Origin: a virus
Direction: 5' to 3' (one strand)
IMG/VR virus record: IMGVR_UViG_640753038_000002
Length of the DNA stretch: 64,000 nucleotides
Both the position numbers and the translations under genes were made by a program. Position 1 is the first letter of the stretch; every line of letters begins with the position of its first letter. Shown piece by piece: positions 22,406 through 61,076 of this stretch. The notes beneath the pieces were generated by a model. That model saw only the letters and a program-made list of their open reading frames with translations, did not search any database and was not told the origin of the DNA.

Positions 22406-24541
22406 TTACCAGATGCTTTTTCGTCTTCCGCCGTCCGGGCGCATCCAGTCATCCCGGCGCGGTTGCGCGGGTGGCGGTGGCTGCGGCTGTTGAGGCGGGG
22501 TTTGGTTGACGTCCTCCCGCACAGCAGGGGGCACGACCGGGGCAGGTTGCACCGGCTCAATAGTCACAAGGTCCGCGCCTTCACCGACGCGAACTGTTCC
22601 TTCGGGGATCGTATGGACGCGAAGCATATAGGCCGCTGCCGCTGCCATGCTTTCGCAGTCCAAGAAGTGGTTGTCCTTGTGACGCGGTATCCATTGCGCC
22701 TTACCGTTGGCGGGATTGATCTTCCGACCTTCGGAAACGATCTGGCGCGCGTAATCTTCCGTCACGCCGCCAAAGATCGCACCGTCAGGCTCGACCAACC
22801 CCATAGGCAGATGAAAACTGCCGGGCCTGCCGATTTCCAAACGGACGCGGCTATGAACAAGCGACTTGAAATAGTCGGTGTCCAAGTGGATCAGCGTAAG
22901 CGAGCTTTTATGCCGCTTGCCGGTATGAGCTACTTCGACCTTGGAAGGTCGTAGCGGCGTCGTTTGCGTGTCTTTACCTTTGGTGGCGAAAATCCATCGT
23001 GGATAGCGCAAGGCGAACTCATAAACGCGGTGTTCATCGCCTGCGCCTGTCTTGTTCGGACGGAAACCGCTGTCGATGAAAACGCAGTCGATCATGCGCC
23101 CGTGGATTGGCGTTAGAAGGTACGTTTCGAGTTCATCCCATACGTTGCGATCCGACGTCGGGCCGTAAATCTGGCCGAAGTCGAGCAACCATGACGAACC
23201 GCGAGCGCCGAAGCCGCGAACGACATAGATCAGCGAGCGCTTTTGAACGTCCACGCCTGCGGTAATCCGAATGACTTCACGAGGAAGGTCGCCGATGCGG
23301 TATGGTAGCCGCTTCGTCATAACCTCTTGCCATTCAGGCGTTTCACCCAAGCCGCCGAGCGTATAACACTCACCGAAACCGGCGTTCATAGCGGTTTGGA
23401 TTTCGTTGTCGTCGCCGCTCGCTAGAGCGGACAGGTAGCGTTCGGCACGCTGACCCCATGTCCGAAAAGGACTGGCAAGACCCGATACCCAAAAGCTTAG
23501 CGTCGTACTGTCCGGCGGTGCGCCTTCGACTTCGCCGTCGCGATTGATTGTCTGACCGGGCGCGATGTACCGGCCACGATCATTCATCCAGCGCTTGGCG
23601 CTCAAATTCGACTTAACGACAGTTACGTTTTCGTCTTCATTGATTGTGCATCCGCAATGCGGGCACACAAGATAGGCGTCGCGGCGCGCTTGCGCTGGTG
23701 TGGCGTGTTTCGGCCAATGAAGGCACGAAAAGCGCGGCACGAAGTAATCTCCGCAATGCGGACAGGGCCAAGCCCAATGATACCGCGTACCTGACTGAAA
23801 AAGGGACCAGATAGGGCTTTGAACCGCTTCCGGGTCCGCGACCTTCCAGAATTCAAGCCCGGACACAGGGTCAATCTCCGTTTCGATATGGCCCTGCGAA
23901 GGCGTCGAAGTAACGACCGTAACGAAGTCGGCGTAAGTGTCGCCGCGCGCTTCCACAAGGCCGAGCGGATCGCCTTGCCCCTTAATGTTGGCAAGCATTT
24001 CATCGTATTCATCGACAATCGCAAGCGCTGCGGGGTCGGACTTGAGCGCCGATGAAGAGCCTGCATGAGCTAGGCGGATCGGAACGCCAGCGACGATTTT
24101 GCGCGTCTTCTTCATGCGCTTGCCGCGCTGCACCTTGCCAGAAAGGCGAGGCGCTTCATCGAGCAAGCCCATAAGGCGAGGTTCAAACTGTTCGGTTAGA
24201 AACTCTTTCGTTGGCGCGACCCACAAAATAGGTGCGGGCCGCTGGTCGAGCCGGTGGCCGACGATATCAAGTTCGCTGTCCGTCTTGCCCATCTGAGCGC
24301 CGAAGACGCCAACGACACGGCTTGCGCCGCTGCTATCGACTGCGCGTTCAAATGGGATGACGTAAGGCGTTAGACTAGGTTCGCGTGGACCGGGGACGCC
24401 CGCGCTTGCGGGGTATTGCCTGTTCTCCCTCGCCCACTGATCCGGTGTCAGCTTCGGCGGCACTTCCAAAAACGTCGCCGCCCGTTCGAAGAGTTGCGAC
24501 GGATGACCGGAGCGCGGACGCCATGCGGTTGCGGCTTGCAT
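22406..24541 (-). CDS. terL: Terminase large subunit (lambda gpA family); exact start uncertain
   Basis: GAQMGKT Walker A, IVDEYDE, STPS, WPCPHCG, AGVDVQK, FIDSG, NHFLDCE motifs. Confidence 0.95.
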   Translation of the reverse strand: MQAATAWRPRSGHPSQLFERAATFLEVPPKLTPDQWARENRQYPASAGVPGPREPSLTPYVIPFERAVDSSGASRVVGVFGAQMGKTDSELDIVGHRLDQRPAPILWVAPTKEFLTEQFEPRLMGLLDEAPRLSGKVQRGKRMKKTRKIVAGVPIRLAHAGSSSALKSDPAALAIVDEYDEMLANIKGQGDPLGLVEARGDTYADFVTVVTSTPSQGHIETEIDPVSGLEFWKVADPEAVQSPIWSLFQSGTRYHWAWPCPHCGDYFVPRFSCLHWPKHATPAQARRDAYLVCPHCGCTINEDENVTVVKSNLSAKRWMNDRGRYIAPGQTINRDGEVEGAPPDSTTLSFWVSGLASPFRTWGQRAERYLSALASGDDNEIQTAMNAGFGECYTLGGLGETPEWQEVMTKRLPYRIGDLPREVIRITAGVDVQKRSLIYVVRGFGARGSSWLLDFGQIYGPTSDRNVWDELETYLLTPIHGRMIDCVFIDSGFRPNKTGAGDEHRVYEFALRYPRWIFATKGKDTQTTPLRPSKVEVAHTGKRHKSSLTLIHLDTDYFKSLVHSRVRLEIGRPGSFHLPMGLVEPDGAIFGGVTEDYARQIVSEGRKINPANGKAQWIPRHKDNHFLDCESMAAAAAYMLRVHTIPEGTVRVGEGADLVTIEPVQPAPVVPPAVREDVNQTPPQQPQPPPPAQPRRDDWMRPDGGRRKSIW

Positions 24542-24947
24542 CGATTTCCTTTTCGATAAGCCTGCGCGTCGGCACATCGCGCGTTACTCGCGCTGGCAGG
24601 CCGCTAAGTTCGGCAACCACCACACCAAGAAGGAAATCTTGGGCGGCTGTTGCGTCGTCGGTTGGGATAAGCTCGCGTTTCTTTTCCGCGATACGAATTT
24701 GAATTTCCTCTGCGCGGGCATCGCGCACGCGGTTATCGGCAGAGGTTTTGTTCTGGTTCTTATTGTCTTCGCGTAGGGACTTGATGTAGCCCTGCACCAC
24801 GCCGACGAACGGAACCTTCCCGCGTGAAGGACGGGGGAAATACCCGGCCTTCGATAGTTGCCGGATACGCTCTTCGGAAATCATAAGAAGGCGCGCGGCC
24901 TGTCCAATGGAAATCAGGCCGCTACCCGGTTCGGTTTCGTCTGCCAT
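24375..24947 (-). CDS. terS: Terminase small subunit
   Basis: N-terminal HTH (ISIGQAARLLMISEERIRQL) plus coiled coil; directly upstream of terL. Confidence 0.85.
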   Translation of the reverse strand: MADETEPGSGLISIGQAARLLMISEERIRQLSKAGYFPRPSRGKVPFVGVVQGYIKSLREDNKNQNKTSADNRVRDARAEEIQIRIAEKKRELIPTDDATAAQDFLLGVVVAELSGLPARVTRDVPTRRLIEKEIDASRNRMASALRSSVATLRTGGDVFGSAAEADTGSVGEGEQAIPRKRGRPRSTRT

Positions 24948-25633
24948 TAGATTGCGGGTCGCTCATAGATAAATCCGGCAAAGTCACCAAAGCGGAAGAT
25001 CGGATCGAAGCCGGGAAGCTCCGCTTCCGTCATCGGTCTTTGGACGCCTGCCAGAGACAGTTCTTTTTGAATAATTTCGTCCGCCGGAGCGCCGTTTTCG
25101 TACTTTGCCGCAAGCGTAAGACGATAGATCACTGAGCCTAAATGACCGGCGCGCGCGGCCATCTTGTCGAAGACAAGAACAGCACCGCCCGGCTGGATCG
25201 CATTGACCATCCGACGAACTACGCCCGCGCGATCCGCAACAGGAACGAACATCAAAGCCAAGAAGGCGACGATCAAATCAGGCTTGTAAGGTTGGAAATC
25301 GAACGCCAAAACGTCGGAAACGATCATTTCGCCGGGGGCTTGATAACGCTCCGCCATATCGGCAGCATTGTCGATAGCAATCAACCGAGCTTGACGATCC
25401 GAAAGGGTCTTCGCAATGGCGCGACCGACATTGCCGGTTGAAGCTCCAACGTCAATTACCGTACCGTTTTCAGGCACATAATGGCGGGCGACGTGAGCGA
25501 CAATACCCGTTGCGATATCGTACCACGGCAGTTGTTCGCGCACATGGCTATCAAATGCCGCTGCTACTTCTGGCGTCTTGAAAGTCCAGTTCTCCGGTAT
25601 CTCGAATGTTTTTCCATGCGAATTGCTGGACAT
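24947..25633 (-). CDS. cmoA: CmoA (carboxy-SAM synthase)-like class I SAM-dependent enzyme
   Basis: WTF..VA..F..H...P.Y / D.G.S.G / IAIDN..M.ER / PGGA.L..DK / K..NG...EI.QK segments match CmoA as I recall it; stop overlaps the terS start (TAATG). Confidence 0.75.
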   Translation of the reverse strand: MSSNSHGKTFEIPENWTFKTPEVAAAFDSHVREQLPWYDIATGIVAHVARHYVPENGTVIDVGASTGNVGRAIAKTLSDRQARLIAIDNAADMAERYQAPGEMIVSDVLAFDFQPYKPDLIVAFLALMFVPVADRAGVVRRMVNAIQPGGAVLVFDKMAARAGHLGSVIYRLTLAAKYENGAPADEIIQKELSLAGVQRPMTEAELPGFDPIFRFGDFAGFIYERPAI

Positions 25634-25636
25634 ATT

Positions 25637-25665
25637 TTTCCAACCACTTTTTAGTCATTTCCAAC
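25637..25665. promoter_or_regulatory. Two TTTCCAAC direct repeats, 21 bp apart (putative operator)
   Basis: Copies at 25637-25644 and 25658-25665 in the divergent gap between the cmoA-like and DUF3489-like genes. Confidence 0.5.
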
Positions 25666-25693
25666 GGCGCTAGGCGTCGGGATTTGATGGAGA

Positions 25694-26260
25694 TTGAAAA
25701 TGACGAATTTGACTTCCGTAGAAGTGTCCAAGCTCACAGCAATTGTTACCGGCGGCGTATTCCACCGCTCCGCAACTCGTACCGAAGCGGTTAATCGCTT
25801 CCAGCGCGTTTGCGACGAAGCAAAGATCGCTTCACCGCTGATCTTTCTCGAAAAGCCGTTTGATATCGCTTCCGCCGAATTGTCGGTCGCGGTTAGCACT
25901 TGCAAGTCGCAGGTCGCCGAGGCTCCGCAGTCGCAATTGTCGTTCGAAGAGAACGAAGCGGAGGTCGTCAATTTCAGCGCTGCACGCAGCCTTATTCGTT
26001 CATCCGCTATCGATCTGGCTATCGCGACCAAGCCGCAGCCAAAGAAAGAAGCCAAAGAGCCGAAGGAACCGACCAAGCGCGAAGTTATGCTTGATATGGT
26101 ATGTAGTCCGGAAGGCGCTACCGAAGCCGAAATCTGCGAGCGGATCGGCTGGAAAGCCTGCGCGACGACGCTCAAGCGAGCCGCAAAGGCCGCTAACGTT
26201 ACTCTTCGCCTTGAGCGCCAGAAAGGCGCGAAATCACGCTTCTTCGGCACGCGGCCATAA
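25694..26260 (+). CDS. DUF3489-like protein with C-terminal winged HTH
   Basis: PTKREVMLDMVCSPEGATEAEICERIGW resembles DUF3489 (K...LI.ML.RPEGAT..EI...TGW). Confidence 0.6.
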   Translation: MKMTNLTSVEVSKLTAIVTGGVFHRSATRTEAVNRFQRVCDEAKIASPLIFLEKPFDIASAELSVAVSTCKSQVAEAPQSQLSFEENEAEVVNFSAARSLIRSSAIDLAIATKPQPKKEAKEPKEPTKREVMLDMVCSPEGATEAEICERIGWKACATTLKRAAKAANVTLRLERQKGAKSRFFGTRP

Positions 26261-26269
26261 CCCGCGTGC

Positions 26270-27343
26270 TTACCTGCCGATCTTGGCTAGAATTTCATCG
26301 CGAACGGTTGCCGCTATATGGCTCATCATTACCGGCGGCACCGCTCTTCCAATCCGTTCCCATTGCTGCGCATAGGTTCCGGTTAGCTTGAAGTCGTCGG
26401 GAAAACCGCCGATCCGCCGAAGCTCCGCGATACTGAACTTTCTCTTTTCAGTCGGATGCGTCACACCAGCGAGTGAAGCCGTCCCGCCCGCCGCCGTAAT
26501 TGTCGGCGACGGTTCGTTAGGGTCGGGCCGTACAAGCTGAAAATAGCGATCTGATTGACCGCCGGGATTTAGCTTGTCCCATTCTTCACCGATAGCAAAA
26601 CGCCCGATATCGGCTTCCGCTTCGACCGTAACTGCTATTCCGTTCGTCAACCATGGCAGCGCGTCGCTGATCGAATAGCGATACGAAAGAGGCTTAGGAA
26701 AGACCGGATTTAGGCCAAGGTCTTCGCGAACGCCCATAAAGATTAGACGCTGCCGCGCCTGCGGTACGCCAAGCCATTGAGCGTCAAGCAAACGCGCTTC
26801 AACCCGATATCCGCACGCCTTGAGCGCTGCAAGGATTTCGAGGAAATAGCCCTTTGCCGTGCCTTTGATTAGGCCGCTGACGTTCTCCGCAACGAAGACC
26901 TTCGGCTTGAGTTGGCGCAGAAGCCGAGCGTATTCGAAGAATAGATCATCGACGCGCTGTTCACTGTCGGAATACTTCTTTACCTGCCCCCACGCCTTTT
27001 CGCGCTTGCCTGCCGTCGAGAAAGACGCGCAAGGAGGCGAGCCGTCGAAAACGTCAAGTTCGCCCGGCTTGAGGCCGGTCGCTGCAAGGATTTCGTCTGC
27101 CGTGACCTGCCGGATATCGCGACCGTCAACAATCGTTCCGGGCCGCGCGTTGGCAAGGTACGTTTCGCGAGCGGCTTCGATAAACTCGGAAGCGAAAAGT
27201 ACACGAAAGCCCGCCATGCGATAGCCGGTTGAAGAGCCGCCACAGCCTGCAAAAGTCGAGATTACGTTATAGCCGTTCCACGGCATCGCGCTGACGTCGC
27301 TCATGAGCGGTACTTGATACGGCGGCTTGTCCAAGCTGGTCAT
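26270..27343 (-). CDS. C5-cytosine DNA methyltransferase-fold enzyme with motif-X Arg (putative carboxymethyltransferase, CmoX-like); ORF can extend to GTG at 27514
   Basis: Motif I FAGCGG, IV GSPPC, VI ENV, VIII QARQR, X ERIGRAVPP; AAGGA RBS before ATG 27343. Confidence 0.9.
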   Translation of the reverse strand: MTSLDKPPYQVPLMSDVSAMPWNGYNVISTFAGCGGSSTGYRMAGFRVLFASEFIEAARETYLANARPGTIVDGRDIRQVTADEILAATGLKPGELDVFDGSPPCASFSTAGKREKAWGQVKKYSDSEQRVDDLFFEYARLLRQLKPKVFVAENVSGLIKGTAKGYFLEILAALKACGYRVEARLLDAQWLGVPQARQRLIFMGVREDLGLNPVFPKPLSYRYSISDALPWLTNGIAVTVEAEADIGRFAIGEEWDKLNPGGQSDRYFQLVRPDPNEPSPTITAAGGTASLAGVTHPTEKRKFSIAELRRIGGFPDDFKLTGTYAQQWERIGRAVPPVMMSHIAATVRDEILAKIGR

Positions 27344-27515
27344 AGGTCGATCCTTGCCGTCGCGCTCAATAACGATATGGACCGGGCGACCGGCAACAAT
27401 CGCAGGTGACGGCGTATCGGTGCAGTCAATAAATTCATGAGCGGTGCCGGGGAACTTACGCGCGCCCGGCGTGTCCTTGAGCAAGCCTACTTGGCGCTCA
27501 ATCCAAATCCGCACT

Positions 27516-28052
27516 TCACTTTACCTTGCCTGACCATTGATACCCGCATTTCGGGCACTGGTGTTCGGTTGCAATATCCTCGCCGTAAGATGGAAACTCT
27601 TCCGGCGCGGAAGGCGCTTTCGCCTCTGCGAAAAGCTTGCCGATTTCCTTATCGTCAAAGCCCATCATGTCGGCGCTGAATTCACCTTCGGAAAGAAGGT
27701 TATCAAGCTCGATTTTGAGAAGCTCTTCATCCCAACCGCCGCCAATCTCGGAAAGCTTGTTATCGGCAATGGTGTAAGCGCGTCTTTTCTCTTCCGACCA
27801 ATCGCGAGCCACAACGACCGGCACTTCTTCAAGAGCAAGATACTTCGCAGCAAGCACGCGGCCATGACCTGCAATGATCGTACCGTCTTCCGCTACAAGA
27901 ACCGGCATTGTGAAGCCGAATTCTTCGATAGATTTCGCTAGTTTTTTGACCTGATTATCCGAATGCTTCTTAGCGTTTCGAGCATACGGAATAAGGTCTT
28001 CAACAGCCCACATTTCGGCGCTTGCAGCGAGGTTATTGACGGCGCTTGTCAT
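27516..28052 (-). CDS. ParB/Srx N-terminal domain protein with C-terminal Zn ribbon
   Basis: LIPYARNAKKH...SIEEFGF..PVLV...IIAGHGR...ADNKL; CPKCGY at the C-terminus. Confidence 0.88.
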   Translation of the reverse strand: MTSAVNNLAASAEMWAVEDLIPYARNAKKHSDNQVKKLAKSIEEFGFTMPVLVAEDGTIIAGHGRVLAAKYLALEEVPVVVARDWSEEKRRAYTIADNKLSEIGGGWDEELLKIELDNLLSEGEFSADMMGFDDKEIGKLFAEAKAPSAPEEFPSYGEDIATEHQCPKCGYQWSGKVK

Positions 28053-28165
28053 GCGTTCTCTTCCTAAAACAAAATCCGAATTGCAAAATCGGAAATACGC
28101 TCAAAAACCGGGGCCGTGTTGCCCGCTAGGGTTGGCCCCTTTCGAAAGATCGTTCACACCCCGGA

Positions 28166-28575
28166 GGGGGCGGGCGGGGTCGGGGCGGGGGTCGAAAAGC
28201 AGGGCCGCGCGTCAGTCGTGCCAGCACGCAGTAGGTACACGGTCGGTTGCGGACGGGTCGCTATAGGTGACGTCGCTATAGGTAGGGGCCTTGATCAAAT
28301 AGGCATAGACGCAAGGCGAATAGGCGGACGGGCTTACGAAGGCACGGTCTACTTGCCTATAGCTAGCGGTACGCAAGGCAAGAGGTTCTTGCTTTGGCTC
28401 CGCGCGCGTCGCGCGCCTGCGGCGCGCCGCGCTTTGTTCTACCTATAGCGATTGTTCTTATAAGTGTTGGTTCTCTTCCTATAGGCGAAAGGGTCAACGG
28501 TCTTCTTGCGGCTAAGGTTCGCCGCAACATTTTCCCGTGGACTTTTTGCCTATCGGGGCACAGGGGCAAATAGGC
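28166..28575. repeat. Non-coding region with a G-run cluster and nine ATAGG/CCTAT motifs; candidate cos/pac region
   Basis: CGCTATAGG at 28259 and 28274; inverted CCTATAGCG at 28442; GCCTATAGC 28355; CCTATAGG 28478; ATAGGC 28299, 28320, 28570; GCCTAT 28548. Confidence 0.5.
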
Positions 28576-28587
28576 CCCCCCCTTTTT

Positions 28588-28827
28588 TTAGCTGAGGCCC
28601 GCGCGTACCGCCGCATCCTTGGCTTCAAGGAGCTTGCGCAAGGCAACGGTACGTTCGGGATTGCGGGGCGTCGTTTCTACGATCTGGTGCGCAAGGTCAC
28701 AGAATGGCTTGGAACGGTTCCGAAGGACTTCCGGCAGGTGTGCATAATGGAAGTAGCGCAAGATATGATCCTGCGCGATTTGCTCTTCGGTAAACTCAGC
28801 GGGCGCAGGATGGATTGCTTCGGACAT
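28588..28827 (-). CDS. Small helical-hairpin protein resembling the Acb2/Tad1-like family
   Basis: F.Y.H...LA..I.E..P...E.T.AL.KL.EA...A..A pattern, recognised from memory. Confidence 0.55.
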   Translation of the reverse strand: MSEAIHPAPAEFTEEQIAQDHILRYFHYAHLPEVLRNRSKPFCDLAHQIVETTPRNPERTVALRKLLEAKDAAVRAGLS

Positions 28828-28941
28828 AGGTTTTCTCTCTTCTTAGACTGGATTGGTTGCGGGGGCGTGGATCGAACACGCGTTCATTCCGGGCATGAGC
28901 CGGTCGCCAAGTCCACTTGACATTCCCCGCGTCGCCGCGCG

Positions 28942-29187
28942 CTACGCGCGCTTGATTGTCGAAGTATTGATATGCGCCATACCGAAGCCGAGCCATTCGA
29001 TTGTCAGGGACATAACGGTATGAGTGCCGTTGGTATCTCCCGTTGCCGGATCGTGGTCGGCTGGTTCGCCGTCGAAGTGGCAAGGGATACGCTCGTATCC
29101 GATAAAAGGCAGGATATGGCCGAATAGCAGACAGCCGCCAAACATAGGCCCGCGACCGGGGAGCCATTCGTAAAACTTCGTTTTCAT
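28942..29187 (-). CDS. Hypothetical protein
   Basis: 81-aa ORF coupled to the upstream gene. Confidence 0.55.
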   Translation of the reverse strand: MKTKFYEWLPGRGPMFGGCLLFGHILPFIGYERIPCHFDGEPADHDPATGDTNGTHTVMSLTIEWLGFGMAHINTSTIKRA

Positions 29188-29633
29188 CCGTGCGATCCTA
29201 GCTCAATTGCAGCGTCAATCTGACGGTACGGCATACGAAGGAGCGACGCGATTTCCGTCCGCGTTCGTCCGAGGCGATGCAGGCGAACAACTTCCGATAT
29301 CGTCTTTGGATAGACGATCAAGGCAACCTGCGGAACGCTACGGGACACTTTCGCCCTGGACTTCGGTTCGCTCTTCGGTTTTTCGGCCTTTGCGATGGGC
29401 TTTGCGGCCTTCGCTTGTGCTTCTATCGCTTGCTCGAATAGGCGCTTCTGTTTCGCCCGCGCTTCGCGCGCGGCCTTGCCGCCCCACGATAGACCGAGCC
29501 GCTTAGCGCGCTGGTGAAGCGCTGCCGGAGATATGCCGAAGTCTTTCGCAATCTGCCGAACGCCGTCACCCCGCGTATAGCGGATCATGGCTTTTCGAAA
29601 TTCGGTATTTGAAAGCTTATTCGGACGAACCAT
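29184..29633 (-). CDS. Basic HTH-containing protein
   Basis: GVRQIAKDFGISPAALHQRAKRLG HTH; second HTH-like C-terminus (RTEIASLLRMPY). Confidence 0.65.
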   Translation of the reverse strand: MVRPNKLSNTEFRKAMIRYTRGDGVRQIAKDFGISPAALHQRAKRLGLSWGGKAAREARAKQKRLFEQAIEAQAKAAKPIAKAEKPKSEPKSRAKVSRSVPQVALIVYPKTISEVVRLHRLGRTRTEIASLLRMPYRQIDAAIELGSHG

Positions 29634-29634
29634 T

Positions 29635-30213
29635 TTAATAGCCCCGCAATACTGTAGCGATTTCTTTTCCGACGCGATCAACGATGCGCGGCATATTTCC
29701 GTAGAAGGTCTGCGCCGATTGGTCTTTGACCAACTCATTCGCGATGCCGGGGCCATATAGCCGTTCAATTGGAAAACGATCCGATCCGGTACGATGGAAT
29801 ACATTGCCATTGAGCTTCGGCGCTAAGACGCCGGGACGCGGCCCCATAAAAGCGCCGGAAAACGATTGACGCCGCCCCCACACCGTTGCCTTGGTTCCCG
29901 CCTTGAATTGGCGCGGCTTGAAATATTTGAGCGAAAGAGGCCGACCCGTTCCGATGATCGCAAATTCGAGGGTATCAAGGCCCTTTGCCGAAGCGCGCCG
30001 GGTCCTTACTCCGCGATTGATAGCGGCGCTTGGAATGGACGTCTGGATGCGCAATGCTCGTTTGACCTGCACGAATGCCCGGCCACCTTCGTAATTGAGC
30101 GCCCGCGACATAACCTTTCGAGCCTTACCTTTTCCAAGGCTTTTCAGGTTGTCGCCGTAGCGGCTCATGATTTCATCAAGTGGCTTAGCGACTAGATAGG
30201 AAGCCATATCCAA
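29635..30213 (-). CDS. Lambda gpZ-like minor tail/tail-completion protein
   Basis: RALN...QVKRAL...RPLSLKYF..RQ...G....VW...GAF...VF.RTG..RFPIERLYGP. Confidence 0.75.
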   Translation of the reverse strand: MDMASYLVAKPLDEIMSRYGDNLKSLGKGKARKVMSRALNYEGGRAFVQVKRALRIQTSIPSAAINRGVRTRRASAKGLDTLEFAIIGTGRPLSLKYFKPRQFKAGTKATVWGRRQSFSGAFMGPRPGVLAPKLNGNVFHRTGSDRFPIERLYGPGIANELVKDQSAQTFYGNMPRIVDRVGKEIATVLRGY

Positions 30214-30222
30214 ACCAATCAG

Positions 30223-30252
30223 AAAAAGAAAAGCCGCGACGAAGCGCGGCTT
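30223..30252 (-). terminator. Intrinsic terminator just before the first late gene (tR'-like position)
   Basis: AAGCCGCG/CGCGGCTT stem plus TTTTCTTTTT on the minus strand. Confidence 0.75.
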
Positions 30253-30550
30253 GAATGTGAGACTTTAACAGCAAGGGTATCCGTGGGGGATAACGATTGG
30301 ATATCGTTCTTATAATACAATCACTGGTGGGATTTGTAAGAGCGAAGTCCGACGCTATCTGCGCATGAGAAATCAGCCGATTTGTCTCAATCGTCAAGCG
30401 TGATTTTTCGCTTTGTTTTGATTGAGCTACTAACAGGCTTATCATTTATGATGGAATATCTGTTAGTTAGGCCGTTTTCGAACCTAGTTATTTTTTTGTC
30501 TCACTTGCGTTTTGATTTGAGGTTTTGACGCGGATTGCAGCGTTAACAGT

Positions 30551-30601
30551 TTTCCAACTTTTTGTTGGATTTAATATGGAATTGCGATTGCATTTTCCAA
30601 C
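30551..30601. promoter_or_regulatory. Operator-like palindrome TCCAAC-TTTTT-GTTGGA plus a further TTTTCCAAC
   Basis: 30553-30569 and 30593-30601, upstream of the plus-strand cluster starting at 30669. Confidence 0.55.
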
Positions 30602-30668
30602 CGCTTTGTATAGCGTTCTTCTCAAGCCGCTTCGCAGTGGTCGATTTGACGATTGAAGGACAAGCGAA

Positions 30669-30860
30669 ATGCAAAGCTATTTCGAAATTTACGTCTCCCT
30701 TAACGGTACACACTTCTTCGCTACGGCTCCGCGCTCTTGCATTACGCAGGATGCGGCAGAAGGCGTTGCCAAAGAAATTCGCAGCCGTTTTCCCGAAGCT
30801 GATGGCTTCAAGGTTTCGGTCACGCATTATCGGTGCAGTGGTCACACCTGCGACTTTTGA
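30669..30860 (+). CDS. Hypothetical phage protein
   Basis: 63 aa, GAAGG RBS. Confidence 0.65.
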   Translation: MQSYFEIYVSLNGTHFFATAPRSCITQDAAEGVAKEIRSRFPEADGFKVSVTHYRCSGHTCDF

Positions 30861-30892
30861 TCATTCAACAAACGAGTTGGGAGACACCCGAA

Positions 30893-31087
30893 ATGAACAC
30901 CAAGCACAACCTTAAAGTCGGTCAGTTCGTTCGCCTGATTTCAAATCATGAGCGCTCCGGCGAGTGCGGGACGATTGAAGAAATCAACAGCGCAACTGCT
31001 CGATTTAAGTTCCACTTCGACGGTGTTGAGACTGTCCGGCCCCTTAACGCTTTCTCCGCCGATACGCTGATCTTTCACGGCCTTTAA
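30893..31087 (+). CDS. Small SH3/KOW-like protein
   Basis: LKVGQFVRLI...GECGTIEEI pattern; GGGAG RBS. Confidence 0.55.
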   Translation: MNTKHNLKVGQFVRLISNHERSGECGTIEEINSATARFKFHFDGVETVRPLNAFSADTLIFHGL

Positions 31088-31135
31088 GCCTTCCGGTTTC
31101 CGCCCGGAAGGGCGGTTTCCCGAACGCTTGGAAGG
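31088..31135 (+). other. Structured intergenic element, copy 1
   Basis: GCCTTCCGGTTTCCG-[CCGCCC/GGGCGG hairpin]-CGGTTTCCC immediately after a stop codon. Confidence 0.55.
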
Positions 31136-31144
31136 AGCAAGAGA

Positions 31145-31423
31145 ATGAATAAGCAGTCAGATCAACTTGAAGCGGCCTGCGAAGTGGCGCGCGAGATAGC
31201 AAATTCCATGTCTGAGGCAGGTATGTCGCCGAGCGTAATTTCTTGCGCACTATGGCGAACCGCCGCCCAAGTGATCGGCACGGTTGCACCTTATGACGCA
31301 ATCGACCCGCTTATCGATGACGCGGCCCGGCTTATGAAGACAGAAGCCTATTCCATATACCAGTTCGCCGCCGAGTTTAGGAAAGCGGAAGAAAGCAAGC
31401 AAACCGACCACAAGCCACATTGA
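31145..31423 (+). CDS. Hypothetical protein
   Basis: 92 aa, GGAG RBS. Confidence 0.65.
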   Translation: MNKQSDQLEAACEVAREIANSMSEAGMSPSVISCALWRTAAQVIGTVAPYDAIDPLIDDAARLMKTEAYSIYQFAAEFRKAEESKQTDHKPH

Positions 31424-31468
31424 GCCTTTCGGTTTCCGGCGACTAGCCTCGCCGGTTTCCCAAAGCCT
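31424..31468 (+). other. Structured intergenic element, copy 2
   Basis: GCCTTTCGGTTTCCG-[CCGGCGA/TCGCCGG hairpin]-CGGTTTCCC immediately after a stop codon. Confidence 0.55.
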
Positions 31469-31542
31469 CACCGATCTTCGAAAAGCGCCTTGAGCGCCAC
31501 GGCGGAGCTTTGCCTAAGCAACGCAACATAAGGATATCTGGA

Positions 31543-31959: not shown

Positions 31960-32015
31960 CCGATTAAGCGACCGATCCGCTGGCAATGCCAGCGGACAGG
32001 CCGGAGGGCCTTCCT

Positions 32016-32702
32016 ATGCTTCACGACACGACACGCCTGCCTCCCTATATCACCAAAGCCAAAATGAAGCTTTTGTCAGATATGGAGCCGGATGACGCTC
32101 TTGAAGAAGTGCGCCGCCTGCGCGCTGAGTACGATGAAAAGCAGAAAAAGCAGCGGGAAAAGTATGATCGTCGGGAATACCGGCAGGCTTATTATGCTGC
32201 CAACAAAAAGAAAATTCTGAAAAAGCAGCGTGTCTATAACAGGCAATGGCGCATCTTGAAGAAGTCGGACCCCGATTGGCAGGAGGCGAACCGAGCGCGT
32301 AAGCGGGCATGGGCTAAAGCTGACCGGGATCGCGCAAGGGCCGCTGGCGAGAAGGCCCCACGGACTGATGCTATACGGGAAAAGGACCGCCGCAAGCGCA
32401 GCCGAATGAAAACACAAAGGCTAGCCCGGAAAGACCCGGACGCGTTGCGGAAAATGATTTCCGCCCGTCTGCCGGGTTATCTAGACGTGGCGGCGCGCGG
32501 GGACGTTATCGCAGCCGTTATGACGGCGGCTCTTGAACGGAAGGTTCTATTTGACGAACTGAACGAGGCCATCAAAGCCCACGTCACCGCCTACAACCGG
32601 CAGTTTGATCACTTCAAGAACGTGTCAATTGACGCCCCGATTGCAGGGACGGACGGACTAACGCGCGCTGACACGTTCGATACCGAAACATTCCATTTTT
32701 GA
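32016..32702 (+). CDS. Basic coiled-coil protein, possible DNA-binding or transcription factor
   Basis: GGAGG RBS; Arg/Lys-rich helices; C-terminal VSIDAPI motif reminiscent of sigma-like factors. Confidence 0.55.
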   Translation: MLHDTTRLPPYITKAKMKLLSDMEPDDALEEVRRLRAEYDEKQKKQREKYDRREYRQAYYAANKKKILKKQRVYNRQWRILKKSDPDWQEANRARKRAWAKADRDRARAAGEKAPRTDAIREKDRRKRSRMKTQRLARKDPDALRKMISARLPGYLDVAARGDVIAAVMTAALERKVLFDELNEAIKAHVTAYNRQFDHFKNVSIDAPIAGTDGLTRADTFDTETFHF

Positions 32703-32711
32703 GGAAGTGTC

Positions 32712-33245
32712 ATGGAAGAAGCAATCTCGCATTTCAGGACTACTATCGAACCGGAATTACATTCGCTGGCTTTGCTCTGTGCTGAACTCAAAATCGGCTT
32801 CCAAGCTTCGGCGACGTTCGGCCCTGACGCCGAAGGGCATAGCCCAACGTTCTATATCTATACGCAAGTAACAGGGGCTTTTCCCCCGATTGTCGGTTCG
32901 GCTGAGTTCATGCCTGCCGTTATTGATCCGCAATGGATCGACGGCTTTGCGAAGTGGAACTTTGCGACTTTCGGCCCCGGCCTTCGTACCGAAGGCACTA
33001 TCGATCATATCCGCGAAGAGCTAGTCGAAATCGAAGCAGCGCCGACAGACCCGGAAGAGTGGGTTGACGTTCTTATGCTCTCGTTGAACGGCCTAACGCG
33101 GCTCGGCCTGAGTGGCAGCGAAATCATCGACGCGATCAACGCGAAGTTTCAGAAGAACTTGGCTCGGAATTGGCCGGACTGGCGAATAGCCCCGCGCGAC
33201 AAGGCTATCAAGCACCAACGGGCCGACGATGAAGCTCAACGATAA
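32712..33245 (+). CDS. dATP/dGTP pyrophosphohydrolase-domain protein (DUF550/MazG-like)
   Basis: FGPG.R..G..DHIREEL.EI...P.D..EW.DV..L...G..R...K...N.AR.WPDWR. Confidence 0.8.
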   Translation: MEEAISHFRTTIEPELHSLALLCAELKIGFQASATFGPDAEGHSPTFYIYTQVTGAFPPIVGSAEFMPAVIDPQWIDGFAKWNFATFGPGLRTEGTIDHIREELVEIEAAPTDPEEWVDVLMLSLNGLTRLGLSGSEIIDAINAKFQKNLARNWPDWRIAPRDKAIKHQRADDEAQR

Positions 33246-33495
33246 GCGCGTAGTTTTCAAACGGATCGCCGCCGTTCGCGAAATTCTCAAGAACGAGATT
33301 TCAGCCAACGCGCGCGGCGGCAAGTACGCATCCGGCTTGGCAAGTGAAGGCTTCGCCGGAGGCTACCTAATGGCACTTGATGACGTTGAAGCCGCGCTTA
33401 CGCACGGCCTGCCGTCAGATCACCGTGGCTACTGGTATCGGGCTACGGAAGCGATGATCAGGAAAGGACGAACCAATGGCAATGAACAAGACTGA
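33229..33495 (+). CDS. Hypothetical protein
   Basis: 88 aa, overlap-coupled within the operon. Confidence 0.6.
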   Translation: MKLNDKRVVFKRIAAVREILKNEISANARGGKYASGLASEGFAGGYLMALDDVEAALTHGLPSDHRGYWYRATEAMIRKGRTNGNEQD

Positions 33496-33880
33496 GAAAG
33501 CCGAAATGGAGCGGCTCCGGCACGACCTTGCGCTTTCGCGTGCGCTCCGCTGGCCGTCGTATCCATCGCCATCGCCGATGACTAGAGACGACATAGAAGC
33601 ATCAAAGTGCGATGTGGTCGCGCGTTTTGGTACGTCAAGCAAAGTCGCGCGGGGCTACTTCGCGAACGTGCACAGCATCCGCGTCGATAAAGGATGGTCG
33701 GACGGATTTCGCCACGGTTATAGCGACAATAGTTCAACCCAAGGAATGGGCCGCTTGTTTCGAACCGACGTCGAAGCTTGGCAGTATCTCCGACACGAAG
33801 TTACTGTTCGTTATGCCGGAGAACTCGCCTTTATCGACCGGATGATTGCGGAAGCGGAGGGCGGCACCGATGGCATTTGA
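33476..33880 (+). CDS. Hypothetical protein
   Basis: 134 aa, AGGA RBS, overlap-coupled. Confidence 0.6.
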   Translation: MAMNKTEKAEMERLRHDLALSRALRWPSYPSPSPMTRDDIEASKCDVVARFGTSSKVARGYFANVHSIRVDKGWSDGFRHGYSDNSSTQGMGRLFRTDVEAWQYLRHEVTVRYAGELAFIDRMIAEAEGGTDGI

Positions 33881-34541
33881 GCTAACGCCTGTAAAGGTCG
33901 CCTACACCAACTATCGCGGCGAAACGTCCGTTCGGACGATTACGCCGCAACGGCTCTGGCACGGTTCAACCGAATGGCACCCGGAGCCACAATGGCTTGT
34001 TACGGCTTATGATCACGATAAACAGGCGGTACGTGATTTCGCGTTCAAGGATTTAGGCTATCCTGAACCGACCGACGCCCGCGATCTGCCTTTCCGGCAG
34101 CGTGATATAGAGCGCGGCCTAATTCTCTTCCGAACAAGCAACAACGCTCACGATTTTATCAATTTCGTTTCGTTGTCGGGCAAGGTTGACGCGCTGCCTC
34201 AGATTGCGAAGGACGAACTTGCTTCGCTCATGCGGAATATCGCGAATGAACTCTCACCAGAACCGAACCATTTTGCCGAAGCCGGCATATTGGTCGATGG
34301 TGATGGGTGGCTCGACATAAACGATGCACCGCACGACGGCACCGTCGTTGATCTTTGGTGTGATCGCTTGTCAGAACGTGTCCCAAACTGCCGCTGGAAC
34401 CACGATTTTAATATCGGCTACCCCGAAGACGGTCCCGGTTTTTGGGAACAGCTTACGGGTACTGAATGGCGTCCGTCATACGACGAAAAATGGTTCTCAC
34501 ATTATCGTTTGGTGCCAGCCGCACCGACGTTGGAGCGGTAG
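33870..34541 (+). CDS. WYL-like N-terminal domain fused to a DUF551-like C-terminal part
   Basis: YTNYRGETSVRTITP...W....WHPEPQW...A.D.DK.AVRDF; later W..I..AP.DGTVVDLW. Confidence 0.65.
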   Translation: MAFELTPVKVAYTNYRGETSVRTITPQRLWHGSTEWHPEPQWLVTAYDHDKQAVRDFAFKDLGYPEPTDARDLPFRQRDIERGLILFRTSNNAHDFINFVSLSGKVDALPQIAKDELASLMRNIANELSPEPNHFAEAGILVDGDGWLDINDAPHDGTVVDLWCDRLSERVPNCRWNHDFNIGYPEDGPGFWEQLTGTEWRPSYDEKWFSHYRLVPAAPTLER

Positions 34542-34543
34542 CT

Positions 34544-35905
34544 ATGATCAACAATAGACAGATTTTCCCACCTATCAAATGGAAGCAAACGAGCGAACGC
34601 GTTTGGGATGCCGTTATAGCTGAAGGATGGAAAGCGCGGGTCGTTCATGCTTTGGGCGATGATACTTGGTCATACGTCGTCAACCATTCTGGCCGTTGTT
34701 TCCTATCATCCAAAGAAGACGCTATGCGCCAAGCCGAAGACAATGCAAAGGATCGGATTTGGAGTGAAATTATTGCGGCTCGCAAGACGATAGCGGCCTT
34801 TCCGAATGCGTTCGAAAACGCACTAACCGGCGGAGGCCGGACGTCGTTTGACGATGCCGCCAAATGGCACGACGAAGAAGCGAAACGGCTGGAAGGTGTC
34901 GAAACCTTCAATAAGCGTATTCGCCACAAGCTTGCCTTCCACCAGATTTGCGCGGCCCAATTCCGGGCGATGAAAAATTCATCGCCGCAGGAATTCCCTT
35001 ATAACCGGACATTCAACGCTATTGCAGCGGCGACGCGCGTAGAGGGCGGCAACGTCGCTATTTCAGTCCATAAGTTTGTGAAGGCTTTCGGTGGGAGCGT
35101 CGTTGAAGATCAAACACCGACCGCGGGGCCAGTTGAAAGCAGTGATCAAAGTCCTGAATGGATTTGGTACGGTGAAGACGACGACGGAAACAGCCGCGTC
35201 TCAACAGGTCGTTGGGCCAAACACTCTTGTCAGAAGCGTTACAAGCTGGCCGAAATCCAAGCAACGGAACACGACCACAAACGCCCTACGCCTGCCGCTA
35301 CAGATACGGGACTAGATTACTACACCGCCGCAGATGTTATGTGGTCTTTGGAAGGTAATAATCCTGCGCCATCCAAGAACGGGCAATGGGTCAAACGCAC
35401 GCAGGCCGATGAGCTATTCGCGGAAAATGCCGAATTGAAAAAGGATAGGCGTTTTAAGCAGCACGTCATTGATGGTCTAGCTGTCGATAAAGAGAGCCTG
35501 AAAGCCGACAACTTGGCGAAAGGTGCGGAAGTCGAGAGAATGCGCGGCGTCTTCCAGCGGATGACAGAGCAGTTTGCTATCGATCCCAACCATTCAATTA
35601 CAATCCGCTCTATGGTGTATGACGGACTTCATGGGGTTGCGAATGAACAATCGACAGCAGATTTTCAAGCATGGAAAGAGTTGCGCGAACTCACGTTCGC
35701 AATCCAGCACAACCCGAACTGCCCTGACAGGTTTCTTATCCGACTGCCGGGCAGAAGTGGCCGCATCGATCTAAAGCCTTACGCCGATCAATTGGGCTTC
35801 CGCAAAAGCGAGACGGAAGACGTAATCGGCTTTGGCAAAACTCTGGCCGAGGCTTTGGCGACCGCTTTAAAGCGCCAAGAGGGAGGGAACGGCAATGGCG
35901 AATGA
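34544..35905 (+). CDS. Mosaic hypothetical protein (ead/Ea22-like modules)
   Basis: 453-aa ORF built from several short unrelated-looking segments (RPTPAATDTG, QADELFAENAELK). Confidence 0.55.
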   Translation: MINNRQIFPPIKWKQTSERVWDAVIAEGWKARVVHALGDDTWSYVVNHSGRCFLSSKEDAMRQAEDNAKDRIWSEIIAARKTIAAFPNAFENALTGGGRTSFDDAAKWHDEEAKRLEGVETFNKRIRHKLAFHQICAAQFRAMKNSSPQEFPYNRTFNAIAAATRVEGGNVAISVHKFVKAFGGSVVEDQTPTAGPVESSDQSPEWIWYGEDDDGNSRVSTGRWAKHSCQKRYKLAEIQATEHDHKRPTPAATDTGLDYYTAADVMWSLEGNNPAPSKNGQWVKRTQADELFAENAELKKDRRFKQHVIDGLAVDKESLKADNLAKGAEVERMRGVFQRMTEQFAIDPNHSITIRSMVYDGLHGVANEQSTADFQAWKELRELTFAIQHNPNCPDRFLIRLPGRSGRIDLKPYADQLGFRKSETEDVIGFGKTLAEALATALKRQEGGNGNGE

Positions 35906-36308
35906 TCGTAAAGAAGCCTTCCTTAGATCATGGTTTGACGTGCCAGAAGGTGTCCATTGGGCGCACGGTATGTCGAACGAGATAGAACAGAATGTTAGCG
36001 CTTGCTTTGATCGAGCTATCGACGCTTGGAACGCGCGCCCCTCTACGGACGTCAGGCTTGTAGTGGTTGGCGAAGTCTCGACCGTTAGGGAAAGCGTCGC
36101 GGTATTCGCCGGTCATATCCTGAGCCGTCAAATTAAACCGGGCGATTTGCTCTGCCTGCATTTGCAGGCTGAGAAGCTATTAGCAGCTGAGCGCGCGGAG
36201 AAGGAAAAGATTGAAGCCGCTTGGTTGGAAGCGGAAGGCATTATCTCCGACCTTAAAGCCGAACTTGCGACTTGCTTGGCGAAATTAAGGGGCAAAAATG
36301 AGCAATAG
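35895..36308 (+). CDS. Hypothetical protein (ead/Ea22-like coiled coil)
   Basis: QAEKLLAAERAEKE coiled-coil segment. Confidence 0.55.
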   Translation: MANDRKEAFLRSWFDVPEGVHWAHGMSNEIEQNVSACFDRAIDAWNARPSTDVRLVVVGEVSTVRESVAVFAGHILSRQIKPGDLLCLHLQAEKLLAAERAEKEKIEAAWLEAEGIISDLKAELATCLAKLRGKNEQ

Positions 36309-36792
36309 CGGACAGTCACTTCCAACGCTTTTTGTCGATATGGACGGCGTTCTTGCCGACTTCGATCAAGGGTACGCCGACCGCTTCGGAATTCGGCCAA
36401 GCAAGACTGACGATAACGTCGATTGGGGCTTAGTAAGGGGTACGGAGGGCTTCTACGCTGGATTGCCGCCTATGCCTGATTTTGACCAGCTATGGCGGGG
36501 CGTAGCCCCATACAATCCGATCATCCTGACCGGCGTTCCGCGTTCGGTGCGAGAAGCCGCCGACAATAAGCGCGCTTGGGTTGATCGCTGGATCGGCAAA
36601 GATCAGCCGATGATCGCTTGTCAGTCGAAAGACAAGAGCCTGCATATCAGGAAGCCCGGCGATATTCTGATCGATGATTGGGAAAAGTACCGCTCGGTTT
36701 GGATTGGTCGAGGCGGTAGATGGATAACGCACACTTCCGCCGAAGCTTCGCTTGCCGGTTTGGCCGCGCTCCTTGCCGGAGGATCGCAATGA
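36298..36792 (+). CDS. HAD-family 5'(3')-deoxyribonucleotidase-like protein
   Basis: FVDMDGVLADF (DxD), ILTG, K..W, LIDD, W...GG..I.H. Confidence 0.85.
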   Translation: MSNSGQSLPTLFVDMDGVLADFDQGYADRFGIRPSKTDDNVDWGLVRGTEGFYAGLPPMPDFDQLWRGVAPYNPIILTGVPRSVREAADNKRAWVDRWIGKDQPMIACQSKDKSLHIRKPGDILIDDWEKYRSVWIGRGGRWITHTSAEASLAGLAALLAGGSQ

Positions 36793-37049
36793 ATACCAAA
36801 GAGATTTTCGACCGCGACAAAATCGTCTTAGACGGTCTGGAAGATATCGCACGCCGGTACGTTACCGACGAAGCCGTCAACGCCGCAAACAATGCGGCGG
36901 AAGCCTATTCGCGGCGGCATATGCTTGGCCTTGTGCAAACCGGCAAGGGTGATCCCGATACGCTTCGCCATGAACGAATGCGGTATGCCGTCGCCGCCGG
37001 AATGCTCCTTTGCGCTACCGGACTAAATGGAGGCAATGGCGATGGTTGA
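36789..37049 (+). CDS. Hypothetical protein
   Basis: ATGA-coupled 86-aa ORF. Confidence 0.55.
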   Translation: MNTKEIFDRDKIVLDGLEDIARRYVTDEAVNAANNAAEAYSRRHMLGLVQTGKGDPDTLRHERMRYAVAAGMLLCATGLNGGNGDG

Positions 37050-37245
37050 TTACATCGATTTTAACGTCCGTTCGCGCGTTCTTGCCCTTGCCGCGAGCAG
37101 ACTTCTTGAAACGCTTCGCTCGTTTAGAATTCGTGCGAAGTATCAGGGCATGACCCATGAGCAGCTAAAAGCGGAAGTTTCTGCGCTCGGTATCCGTATC
37201 GAAAAGGCTCGCGCGGCGTCGCGCGTTGAAGGGGGAAAATTATGA
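37027..37245 (+). CDS. Hypothetical protein
   Basis: GGAGG RBS, 72 aa. Confidence 0.55.
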   Translation: MEAMAMVDYIDFNVRSRVLALAASRLLETLRSFRIRAKYQGMTHEQLKAEVSALGIRIEKARAASRVEGGKL

Positions 37246-37481
37246 CCCCTTGGACATGGCACGCCGGTAGCCTTGGCGAAGACGTTTACGATTTGGCCGA
37301 AGAGCCGACACGCGAACGCGTCATTGAAGAAGCGAGCAGATATCTTGCTGCCGGTGACAAATTCCAAATCATTGAAGCCCGATCCAGCACGGACGTAAAA
37401 TATGAGGGCGCGGATTTCGTTCCGTTTCTTCGAACCCGAAACCACGAAATTATAACGGTCGAAGCCGTTAACGAGGACTAG
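37242..37481 (+). CDS. Hypothetical protein
   Basis: ATGA-coupled 79-aa ORF. Confidence 0.6.
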   Translation: MTPWTWHAGSLGEDVYDLAEEPTRERVIEEASRYLAAGDKFQIIEARSSTDVKYEGADFVPFLRTRNHEIITVEAVNED

Positions 37482-37492
37482 AGGAATTCAAG

Positions 37493-37951
37493 ATGACAAT
37501 CCTTTCGGCTCAATCTATCCGCACGCGCGGGATCTTCAAACCCTTCCATGAGCGAACCCTAAGCAACGGCATGACCTTCGGTCTTGGCCCGGCAGGCTAC
37601 GACGTTCGGATCGCGGAAACTCTAACTCTTGAACCGGCGCGCCGCGCCGTTCTAGCAAGCACCATGGAACACTTTACCATGCCGGTCGATTGCGCGGCAT
37701 ACGTCAAAGACAAATCGACATGGGCGCGGCGGTTCGTTCTTGTCCAGAATACGGTTATAGAACCGGGTTGGCGCGGCTTTCTTACGCTCGAAATCTCTTA
37801 CGAAGGACAAGAGCCGATCACGATTGAGCAAGGTTCGCCGATTGCGCAAATCATCTTTCACAAGCTGGATGAACCTACCGAAAGCCCTTATGCCGGTAAG
37901 TATCAAGACCAGTCGGAAGGCGCGCAACCGGCACGCTTAGAAGGCCAATAA
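37493..37951 (+). CDS. dcd: dCTP deaminase
   Basis: GLGPAGYDVRI...STMEHF..P......KSTWAR...VIEPGWRGFLTLEI...IAQIIF...Y.GKYQ.Q. Confidence 0.9.
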   Translation: MTILSAQSIRTRGIFKPFHERTLSNGMTFGLGPAGYDVRIAETLTLEPARRAVLASTMEHFTMPVDCAAYVKDKSTWARRFVLVQNTVIEPGWRGFLTLEISYEGQEPITIEQGSPIAQIIFHKLDEPTESPYAGKYQDQSEGAQPARLEGQ

Positions 37952-57410: not shown

Positions 57411-57413
57411 GCC

Positions 57414-57758
57414 ATGAAGATCGCTGCCAGAATAGACAAGGGAACTTACCTTGTGGAAATGACGACTATCGAAGTCGCCCGCGCTGCTGGTTTCACTGAC
57501 GATTGGGATAGTGAATTCAACAAAGCAGCAGGTCAGTACGTTCGCGAAAATGGTTTGCGGATAGGCACGCAAATTGAAGTGAACGCAGCCTATACGTTCC
57601 ACCGCAGGATTTCGGAGAATTCCGAAAAGGCAAAGAACTCCGCGAATGTTCTACGGGCGCTTGCGGAAATGCTCGAAAGTGGATTGCCGCACGTAGTTCT
57701 TCCGCCTGCCGAAGAAACGCCAAAGCCCGAAGGGGCTGGCGGGGCTGGTGTCGAATGA
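57414..57758 (+). CDS. Hypothetical protein
   Basis: 114 aa, GAGG RBS. Confidence 0.6.
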   Translation: MKIAARIDKGTYLVEMTTIEVARAAGFTDDWDSEFNKAAGQYVRENGLRIGTQIEVNAAYTFHRRISENSEKAKNSANVLRALAEMLESGLPHVVLPPAEETPKPEGAGGAGVE

Positions 57759-60987: not shown

Positions 60988-61076
60988 AAAGGCGAGCGTC
61001 AACGCCTGTTCGCTTCCCTTGGTGGTTACTGACCGCCGCCGTTTTCCTATTCTTATTCTGGCAGGTTTTCCAATGA
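60984..61076 (+). CDS. Very small membrane peptide (30 aa)
   Basis: MKRRASTPVRFPWWLLTAAVFLFLFWQVFQ; ATGA overlaps at both ends. Confidence 0.4.
   Translation: MKRRASTPVRFPWWLLTAAVFLFLFWQVFQ

Follow-up and report, generated by a model that had tools for sequence, protein, structure and literature searches.

The closest described counterpart of the locus analysed here is the CmoA-CmoX-CmoY system of Synechococcus phage S-B43 (Yang et al., Nat Commun, December 2025; PMC12783734). Our locus is a putative DNA carboxymethylation module that lies beside the terminase genes of a prophage, in a stretch of 64,000 nucleotides from IMG/VR virus record IMGVR_UViG_640753038_000002, hereafter termed the window. 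In S-B43, SpCmoA converts S-adenosylmethionine (SAM) and prephenate into carboxy-SAM (Cx-SAM), and SpCmoX (PDB 8YF3) transfers the carboxymethyl group onto the C5 atom of cytosine in GC motifs. Wild-type SpCmoX takes Cx-SAM only, its R350N variant is inactive, and its activity in E. coli needed cmoA. The crystal structure revealed that Arg350, equivalent to Asn304 of M.HhaI, binds the carboxylate of the cofactor carboxymethyl group. CmoY adds glycine to the resulting 5-carboxymethylcytosine (5cxmC), and the virion DNA of S-B43 contains the glycine amide only, with no 5cxmC; carboxymethylated DNA of this phage is resistant to HhaI. The same study listed 5,615 candidate CmoX proteins, defined by SPPC plus Arg, with 4,257 CmoA homologues, 2,251 ligases and 1,660 ParBc proteins on the same contigs, the ParBc neighbours of CmoX being reported with their function unassigned.

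The window resembles S-B43 in having an Arg-type C5 transferase in which SPPC, Arg350 and the remaining contacts to Cx-SAM are kept, a CmoA homologue that is encoded by the phage, falls into the same PHROG and, like SpCmoA, has Glu at the column of E. coli CmoA Arg199, and a ParB-domain neighbour as on those 1,660 contigs. By contrast, S-B43 is a lytic cyanomyovirus, whereas the window belongs to a temperate alphaproteobacterial prophage with the gene order CmoX, opposite-strand DUF3489, CmoA and terS; moreover, CmoY of S-B43 yields the glycine amide, whereas the window is devoid of CmoY and 5cxmC itself is predicted. The module is thus a further, ligase-less member of the published CmoX/CmoA system and not a new discovery. 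A preliminary description of this DNA, made from the sequence alone, had pointed to a natural CmoX/CmoA pair reported in a cyanophage. Altogether, we put the probability that the window, as part of a large myovirus-like prophage, carries a module for DNA carboxymethylation of the CmoX/CmoA type at roughly 80%, based on gene content, residue conservation and co-occurrence.

Two other systems are also comparable. In the engineered M.MpeI N374K, cited in PMC12783734, a basic residue at the motif-X Asn likewise leads to Cx-SAM use and 5cxmC. However, this is a laboratory Lys point mutant that is CpG-specific and depends on the host CmoA, whereas the window enzyme is natural, combines Arg with Ala in place of the Gln after the catalytic Cys, and comes with its own synthase. 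The E. coli CmoA/CmoB pathway of transfer RNA (tRNA) 5-carboxymethoxyuridine (cmo5U) synthesis shares the CmoA-type fold, the SAM-binding residues and presumably the same Cx-SAM chemistry. It differs in the acceptor, which is 5-hydroxyuridine (ho5U) of tRNA rather than a DNA cytosine, in Arg199, which is Glu in the window protein, and in CmoB, which was found neither in the window nor above the cut-off in the host genome.

Direct reading of the sequence showed that the transferase gene is an intact, full-length open reading frame (ORF) homologous to C5-cytosine methyltransferases, which matches PF00145 with 182 bits over residues 25-346 and TIGR00675 with 160 bits. It possesses all catalytic motifs, namely FAGCGG (I), SPPC (IV, with Cys105), ENV (VI, with Glu153) and QARQR (VIII), whereas its motif X reads E-R-I-G-R-A-V-P-P, with Arg333 at the usual Asn position. 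The preliminary description had reported these motifs and this Arg, and all of its coordinates proved right. HMMER alignment with solved structures placed Arg333 opposite the motif-X Asn of M.HaeIII and Arg350 of SpCmoX, which confirms the position assumed earlier. The codon AGA is two changes away from AAT or AAC, and the Arg is not a sequencing slip, because Arg occupies this column in 38 homologues of other genomes and on 73 viral contigs as well; the earlier judgement that a single miscall is unlikely therefore stands.

Among all PDB sequences, the best match of the transferase is SpCmoX (8yf3_A, E-value of 3e-72), the motif X of which also contains G-R. Global alignment gave 45% identity between the two proteins, and all six reported Cx-SAM-contact or catalytic residues of SpCmoX are conserved: F31, E53, F54, D76, C105 and R333 of the window protein correspond to F25, E47, F48, D69, C98 and R350. 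The signature of the published CmoX search is also found, as S102-P-P-C105 is aligned with S95-C98 of SpCmoX, and R333 with R350. Judged by these alignments, the window transferase is a CmoX family member that shows every sequence criterion of the published family, and the earlier prediction of a 5cxmC system from an Arg-type transferase and a CmoA-like gene agrees with a characterised enzyme pair. In addition, a second pocket change tracks the Arg: directly after the catalytic Cys, where Gln is usual, the window protein has Ala106. Across the loci compared (the window, L006-L052 and L062-L141), all Arg-type transferases found have Ala, Ser or Cys here, and the Asn-type relatives have Gln. PMC12783734 contains no mention of the position following the catalytic Cys.

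The second component is the CmoA-like protein, which falls into phrog_4752, the PHROG that also takes SpCmoA and E. coli CmoA. The closest PDB sequences found by phmmer are the CmoA entries 4GEK, 4IWN and 1IM8. Consistently, a Foldseek search with its AlphaFold2 model (predicted local distance difference test score of 87.8) returned CmoA (4GEK, 4IWN and 1IM8) as the top six PDB matches, with template modelling (TM) scores of 0.68-0.76 and E-values of about 1e-15, a modest margin over the next family at about 3e-13. The residues around the SAM moiety are kept, with Y38, D61, G63, S65, D88, F129 and D156 corresponding to Y39, D62, G64, S66, D89, F137 and the acidic residue 164 of E. coli CmoA. 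With SpCmoA and E. coli CmoA the protein shares only 21-24% identity, and it falls into a clade of its own, characterised by an invariant K-E-L-S-L-x-G-x-Q-R-P motif and a shorter C-terminus; its own Arg199 lies in the QRP part of this motif, which is invariant across the clade. We consider it a likely Cx-SAM synthase, and the weakest link of the module. The host genome is complete (5.2 Mb in six replicons, two chromosomes and four plasmids), and a search of it for CmoA and CmoB found neither above the family cut-offs, the phage gene being the best CmoA match of the genome. With both CmoA and CmoB missing from the host at these cut-offs, the phage must supply the Cx-SAM cofactor, which fits the earlier proposal that it brings its own synthase.

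The two genes co-occur in searches from either side. A search with the CmoX query, restricted to one genome per species, yielded 47 loci from many phyla; 38 of them have Arg at motif X, and each of these 38 is flanked by a CmoA homologue. Eight full-length relatives are of the Asn type (L015, L018-L020, L041, L043, L051 and L052, mostly metagenome-assembled genomes of Acidobacteriota). These are 49-66% identical to the window CmoX and have Asn and Gln, the canonical residues, at both pocket sites; they too are preceded by ParB, and CmoA lies beside the gene in none (0/8). L050, a ninth and distant relative of the Asn type, lacks matches to both CmoA and ParB. In the same taxonomic order as the host, only one of 300 other genomes gave a close CmoX match, a fragment at a contig end without context. 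For the CmoA-like clade, a single-protein query gave three viral relatives, and an alignment query was needed for wider reach, which found the clade on at least 427 IMG/VR contigs. The viral counts given here cover the best 80 of these 427 contigs. A transferase is present in the locus on 73 of the 80, always of the Arg type (73/73), and five of the seven contigs without one have less than 1.4 kb upstream of CmoA.

In the phylogenetic tree, the Asn types form one clade, which the maximum-likelihood (ML) tree nests among the Arg types. This nesting is suggestive of an Arg-to-Asn reversion accompanied by CmoA loss; the approximately unbiased (AU) test leaves the direction undecided, as a single clade of all Arg types was not rejected (p 0.36). 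More distant homologues occur in Flavobacterium phage tooticki6-1 (L142:2881-4008) and Bacillus phage BMBtp14 (L143:2977-4017), whose motif X reads G-M-S-V-P-P, so that Met replaces Asn or Arg, and in which Ser follows PPC. No CmoA match was found in the phage groups of these two.

Comparison with individual relatives revealed a recurrent organisation. The closest relative found, L062 (IMGVR_UViG_2545824690_000009), has in common with the window the order ParB, CmoX, opposite-strand DUF3489, CmoA-like, terS and terL; its CmoA-like protein is 89% identical and the module DNA is 76-79% identical. It differs in an AsnB-like ligase gene that follows CmoX and is absent from the window, and in its CmoX, whose target-recognition region is longer by about 265 nt (L062:2095-2360, against about 26645 in the window). 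Owing to this difference in the recognition region, closely related modules may differ in target motif. Moraxella phage Mcat8 (KR093632) contains ParB, CmoX (47% identity), a CmoA-like protein of the same clade (45%), terS, terL and portal in order; however, it has no DUF3489 gene and its terS is of another family. Streptomyces phage TurkishDelight (NC_073473) likewise possesses ParB, CmoX (60% identity) and CmoA, but there an AsnB-like ligase separates CmoX from CmoA, and the CmoA sits on another branch. Both are isolated phages in which the module genes are unannotated or generically annotated.

Several observations weigh against the reading of the locus as a carboxymethylation module. The first half of the target-recognition region could not be aligned with SpCmoX, and the GC specificity of SpCmoX is therefore not transferable to the window enzyme. 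The contrast between Arg and Asn types is statistically weak, because it reflects a single evolutionary change. CmoX and the CmoA-like gene are split by the opposite-strand DUF3489 gene, and promoter and terminator signals predicted at 24000-31500 were not more numerous than in shuffled sequence. Among public sequencing runs, only DNA runs contain the stretch; the RNA runs under the species label are tiny and none contains it. Further points are three ORFs of 430-479 residues without recognised function (34466-35905, 56310-57602 and 60325-61734), and two features of the CmoA-like protein: its best NCBIfam match, TIGR00740, reaches only 62 bits, below the cut-off, and Glu191 (window 25061-25063) stands at the column of E. 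coli CmoA Arg199. The last three bear on specific alternatives.

It is unlikely, in our estimate, that 5cxmC is only an intermediate, which a phage or host enzyme converts further, for example into an amide as in most relatives. At least 43 of the 80 viral loci have a ligase adjoining CmoX (27 AsnB-like and 16 SpCmoY-like), S-B43 virion DNA carries the glycine amide alone, the three ORFs without assigned function could harbour such an activity, and the host encodes AsnB on its second chromosome. The AsnB-like type follows CmoX in L062, in 26 other IMG/VR loci, and in L013, L016, L017, L024 and L144. In L062 the enzyme (L062:2717-4078) has 453 residues with GATase and Asn_synthase domains and an M-C-G start, lies directly after CmoX and is 41% identical to gp124 of TurkishDelight. 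It probably belongs to the second ligase cluster of PMC12783734, with the primary amide of 5cxmC as predicted product. Against such a further step, the SpCmoY query had no match in the whole host genome including the prophage, PF00733 (Asn_synthase) had none in the window or the flanking prophage, and Pfam and PHROG scans of the prophage ORFs found nothing resembling an amide ligase of the CmoY or AsnB type. The only match of the L062 ligase query is 29% identical and located on contig C2, outside the prophage. DNA alignment showed that the 1.7-kb ligase segment of L062 is cleanly absent from the window, from the CmoX stop to the DUF3489 stop. L066 also has no match to either ligase query, and only about 250 bp separate its CmoX from DUF3489. 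Given that no amide ligase was found in the prophage, plain 5cxmC is the likely end product, and by its gene content the window phage is probably a ligase-less variant with unligated 5cxmC as the final mark.

Somewhat less likely still, the CmoA-like clade might make a different, probably anionic, SAM derivative, which would give a cytosine adduct other than 5cxmC. The 62 bits on TIGR00740 are far under the curated equivalog cut-off of 193.3 bits and below the score of SpCmoA, Glu replaces Arg199, and the clade has its own invariant motif and short C-terminus. Arg199 of E. coli CmoA is the sole side chain that contacts the Cx-SAM carboxylate (PMC3663124, PMC4482062). Nevertheless, the biochemically validated SpCmoA (L001) scores 115.6 bits on TIGR00740, likewise below the cut-off, and has Glu188 at the same ungapped column as Arg199; other CmoX-linked CmoA homologues score 63-176 bits. 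Because validated SpCmoA also fails it, the cut-off marks the bacterial tRNA-pathway enzyme rather than the activity, and because SpCmoA shares both features, neither the low score nor Glu191 rules out Cx-SAM synthesis. Moreover, the transferases that partner this clade have the same pocket residues (Arg, with Ala or Ser after PPC) as the partners of Arg199-bearing CmoAs, the two sets of partners intermix on the tree, and the nearest folds are all CmoA. We would be surprised, even more so, if the phages of this clade, on at least 427 contigs, carried an undescribed cytosine modification derived from an anionic analogue other than Cx-SAM. With Cx-SAM retained as the expected product of the CmoA-like protein, it is of note that E. 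coli CmoA binds its product tightly and is reported to be inhibited by it. SpCmoA is tenfold faster than E. coli CmoA (PMC12783734). From the sequence comparison, the loss of Arg199 in phage CmoA might speed Cx-SAM release.

The entire window is phage-like, with baseplate-type, sheath and tape measure tail genes, capsid/protease, portal and terminase genes, a single-stranded DNA-binding protein (SSB), an AAA_25-domain ATPase, a CI-like helix-turn-helix (HTH) protein and exonucleases. According to this gene content, the element is a large myovirus-like prophage. On the left, genes of host type start at a distance of about 5 kb from the window (left of about 1.571 Mb); on the right, they start immediately beyond a tRNA-Met gene (L059:219-295), which lies 219 nt past the right end of the window at the apparent right prophage border; both borders are approximate. 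A search of the window and its surroundings detected no PF00589 tyrosine integrase, and no direct repeat (att) of at least 13 nt is shared by the tRNA-Met region and the left flank. These two results, the lack of the stretch in public RNA runs and the missing ligase would fit a silent relic of a defective prophage that modifies nothing. This is very improbable, since the module ORFs are all full length with intact catalytic residues, the packaging, head and tail set is complete, replication genes and a CI-like repressor are present, and near-identical DNA is present in several sequencing runs made independently under the same species label. Least credible is an ordinary SAM-dependent C5-methyltransferase that makes 5-methylcytosine (5mC), tolerates the Arg and is unrelated to the CmoA-like gene: the canonical catalytic motifs are intact and engineered Asn-to-Lys enzymes are described as accepting Cx-SAM, but SpCmoX took Cx-SAM only in vitro and required cmoA in E. 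coli, the Arg-type transferase and CmoA co-occur strictly in both search directions, and the usual post-Cys Gln is also replaced.

We propose the following mechanism for the carboxymethylation module. The CmoA-like enzyme would convert SAM and prephenate into carboxy-SAM, which the host would not be able to make. CmoX would flip the target cytosine out, Cys105 would attack C6, and the carboxymethyl group of Cx-SAM would be moved to C5, with its carboxylate held by Arg333 where ordinary methyltransferases have Asn. The product would be 5cxmC at a short motif, probably as the final mark. With CmoA presumably coupled translationally to terS and the module at the head of the late or packaging block, replicated phage DNA would be modified before or during packaging, and 5cxmC might shield it from the restriction enzymes of the next host. 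We infer the chemistry, the late timing and the anti-restriction role in this phage from the arrangement and the residues described above.

The features of the locus are summarised in Table 1. The preliminary description had placed the CmoA-like ORF about 640 bp downstream of the transferase; the distance from the CmoX stop to the CmoA-like start is 637 bp. However, this interval is not a spacer, as it is occupied by the DUF3489 gene, which is convergent with CmoX and ends 9 nt from the CmoX stop. An opposite-strand DUF3489 gene also exists in the relatives L062, L065, L066, L071 and L073. In L062, it sits just past the AsnB-like ligase. The gene might conceivably regulate the module. The overlap of the CmoA-like gene with terS is real: the TAA at 24949-24947 shares a base with the terS ATG at 24947-24945, and the downstream gene is identified as terS by its phrog_57 match. 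The true start of terL is probably downstream of the start of its longest ORF. ParB lies directly upstream of CmoX, as a ParB homologue does in nearly all related loci. The order ParB-CmoX-CmoA-terS-terL recurs in Mcat8, and in many verrucomicrobial proviruses terS directly follows CmoA; a position at the start of the packaging genes is thus a recurrent feature. Hence the earlier view of a module wired into a packaging operon holds in part: the terS overlap and the recurrent gene order support the link to packaging, whereas the intervening opposite-strand gene means that CmoX and CmoA do not form one uninterrupted operon. As promoter and terminator signals were not above chance, we claim no operon boundaries.

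Table 1. Features of the window at and around the predicted carboxymethylation module, by position.
Feature	Position	Strand	Length, match or basis
Terminase large subunit, gpA type	22406-24577	-	PF05876 E 6e-49, PF20454 E 1e-52
Terminase small subunit (terS)	24375-24947	-	phrog_57 E 6e-20
TAATG stop/start overlap, CmoA-like and terS	24945-24949	-	sequence read
CmoA-like putative carboxy-SAM synthase, divergent clade	24947-25633	-	228 aa; phrog_4752 E 2e-60
DUF3489 gene	25694-26260	+	188 aa; PF11994 E 1e-14
CmoX-type DNA cytosine-C5 carboxymethyltransferase, predicted	26270-27343	-	357 aa from ATG; PF00145, PDB 8yf3_A
Arg333 codon AGA, motif-X Asn position	26345-26347	-	sequence read, alignments
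Cys105-Ala106 of motif IV (PPC-A)	27026-27031	-	Ala106 = 27026-27028
171 nt from ParB stop to CmoX ATG	27344-27514	-	open in CmoX frame; N-terminal extension or untranslated
ParB N-terminal-domain protein, C-terminal CxxC zinc-ribbon-like tail	27516-28052	-	178 aa; PF02195 E 4e-7, phrog_620 E 3e-54
dATP/dGTP pyrophosphohydrolase	32712-33245	+	PF04447
NT5C-like deoxynucleotidase	36298-36792	+	
dCTP-deaminase/dUTPase-like protein	37493-37951	+	

The CmoX frame is open back to a GTG at 27514, one base past the ParB stop. The ATG at 27343 is favoured as the start, because AAGGA precedes it by 7 nt and the majority of homologues start 2-6 residues ahead of a KPPY(R/Q)VP motif; on these sequence grounds it is likelier than the GTG. 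The 171-nt stretch between the two codons may be a relic or an N-terminal extension, and at the protein level its similarity to the region upstream in the Terriglobia locus L051 is 38%. Its translation, T-P-S-P-A-I-V-A-G ... H-I-V-I-E, resembles the P-S-P-T-I-T-A segment of the transferase itself. Farther along the prophage, nucleotide-metabolism genes are mixed with unknowns on the plus strand at 31986-37951, which includes the 479-residue ORF at 34466-35905; this gene run might shape the dNTP pool for another modification.

Since the system has already been published, together with thousands of candidates, the value of this locus is practical and incremental; modest interest comes from its location in a prophage of a complete genome, the absence of a ligase and the divergent CmoA-like clade. 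The CmoA-like protein represents a large clade that, like the fast SpCmoA, is without the Arg199 tied to tight product binding. The Ala, Ser or Cys signature after the catalytic Cys could sharpen the prediction or the engineering of carboxymethyltransferases. Owing to its setting in a complete genome, the prediction could be tested directly, provided that the strain is in culture. S-B43, to date the only native phage to be analysed, contained just the glycine amide, and a ligase-less module would reveal whether virion DNA can carry unligated 5cxmC as its final mark.

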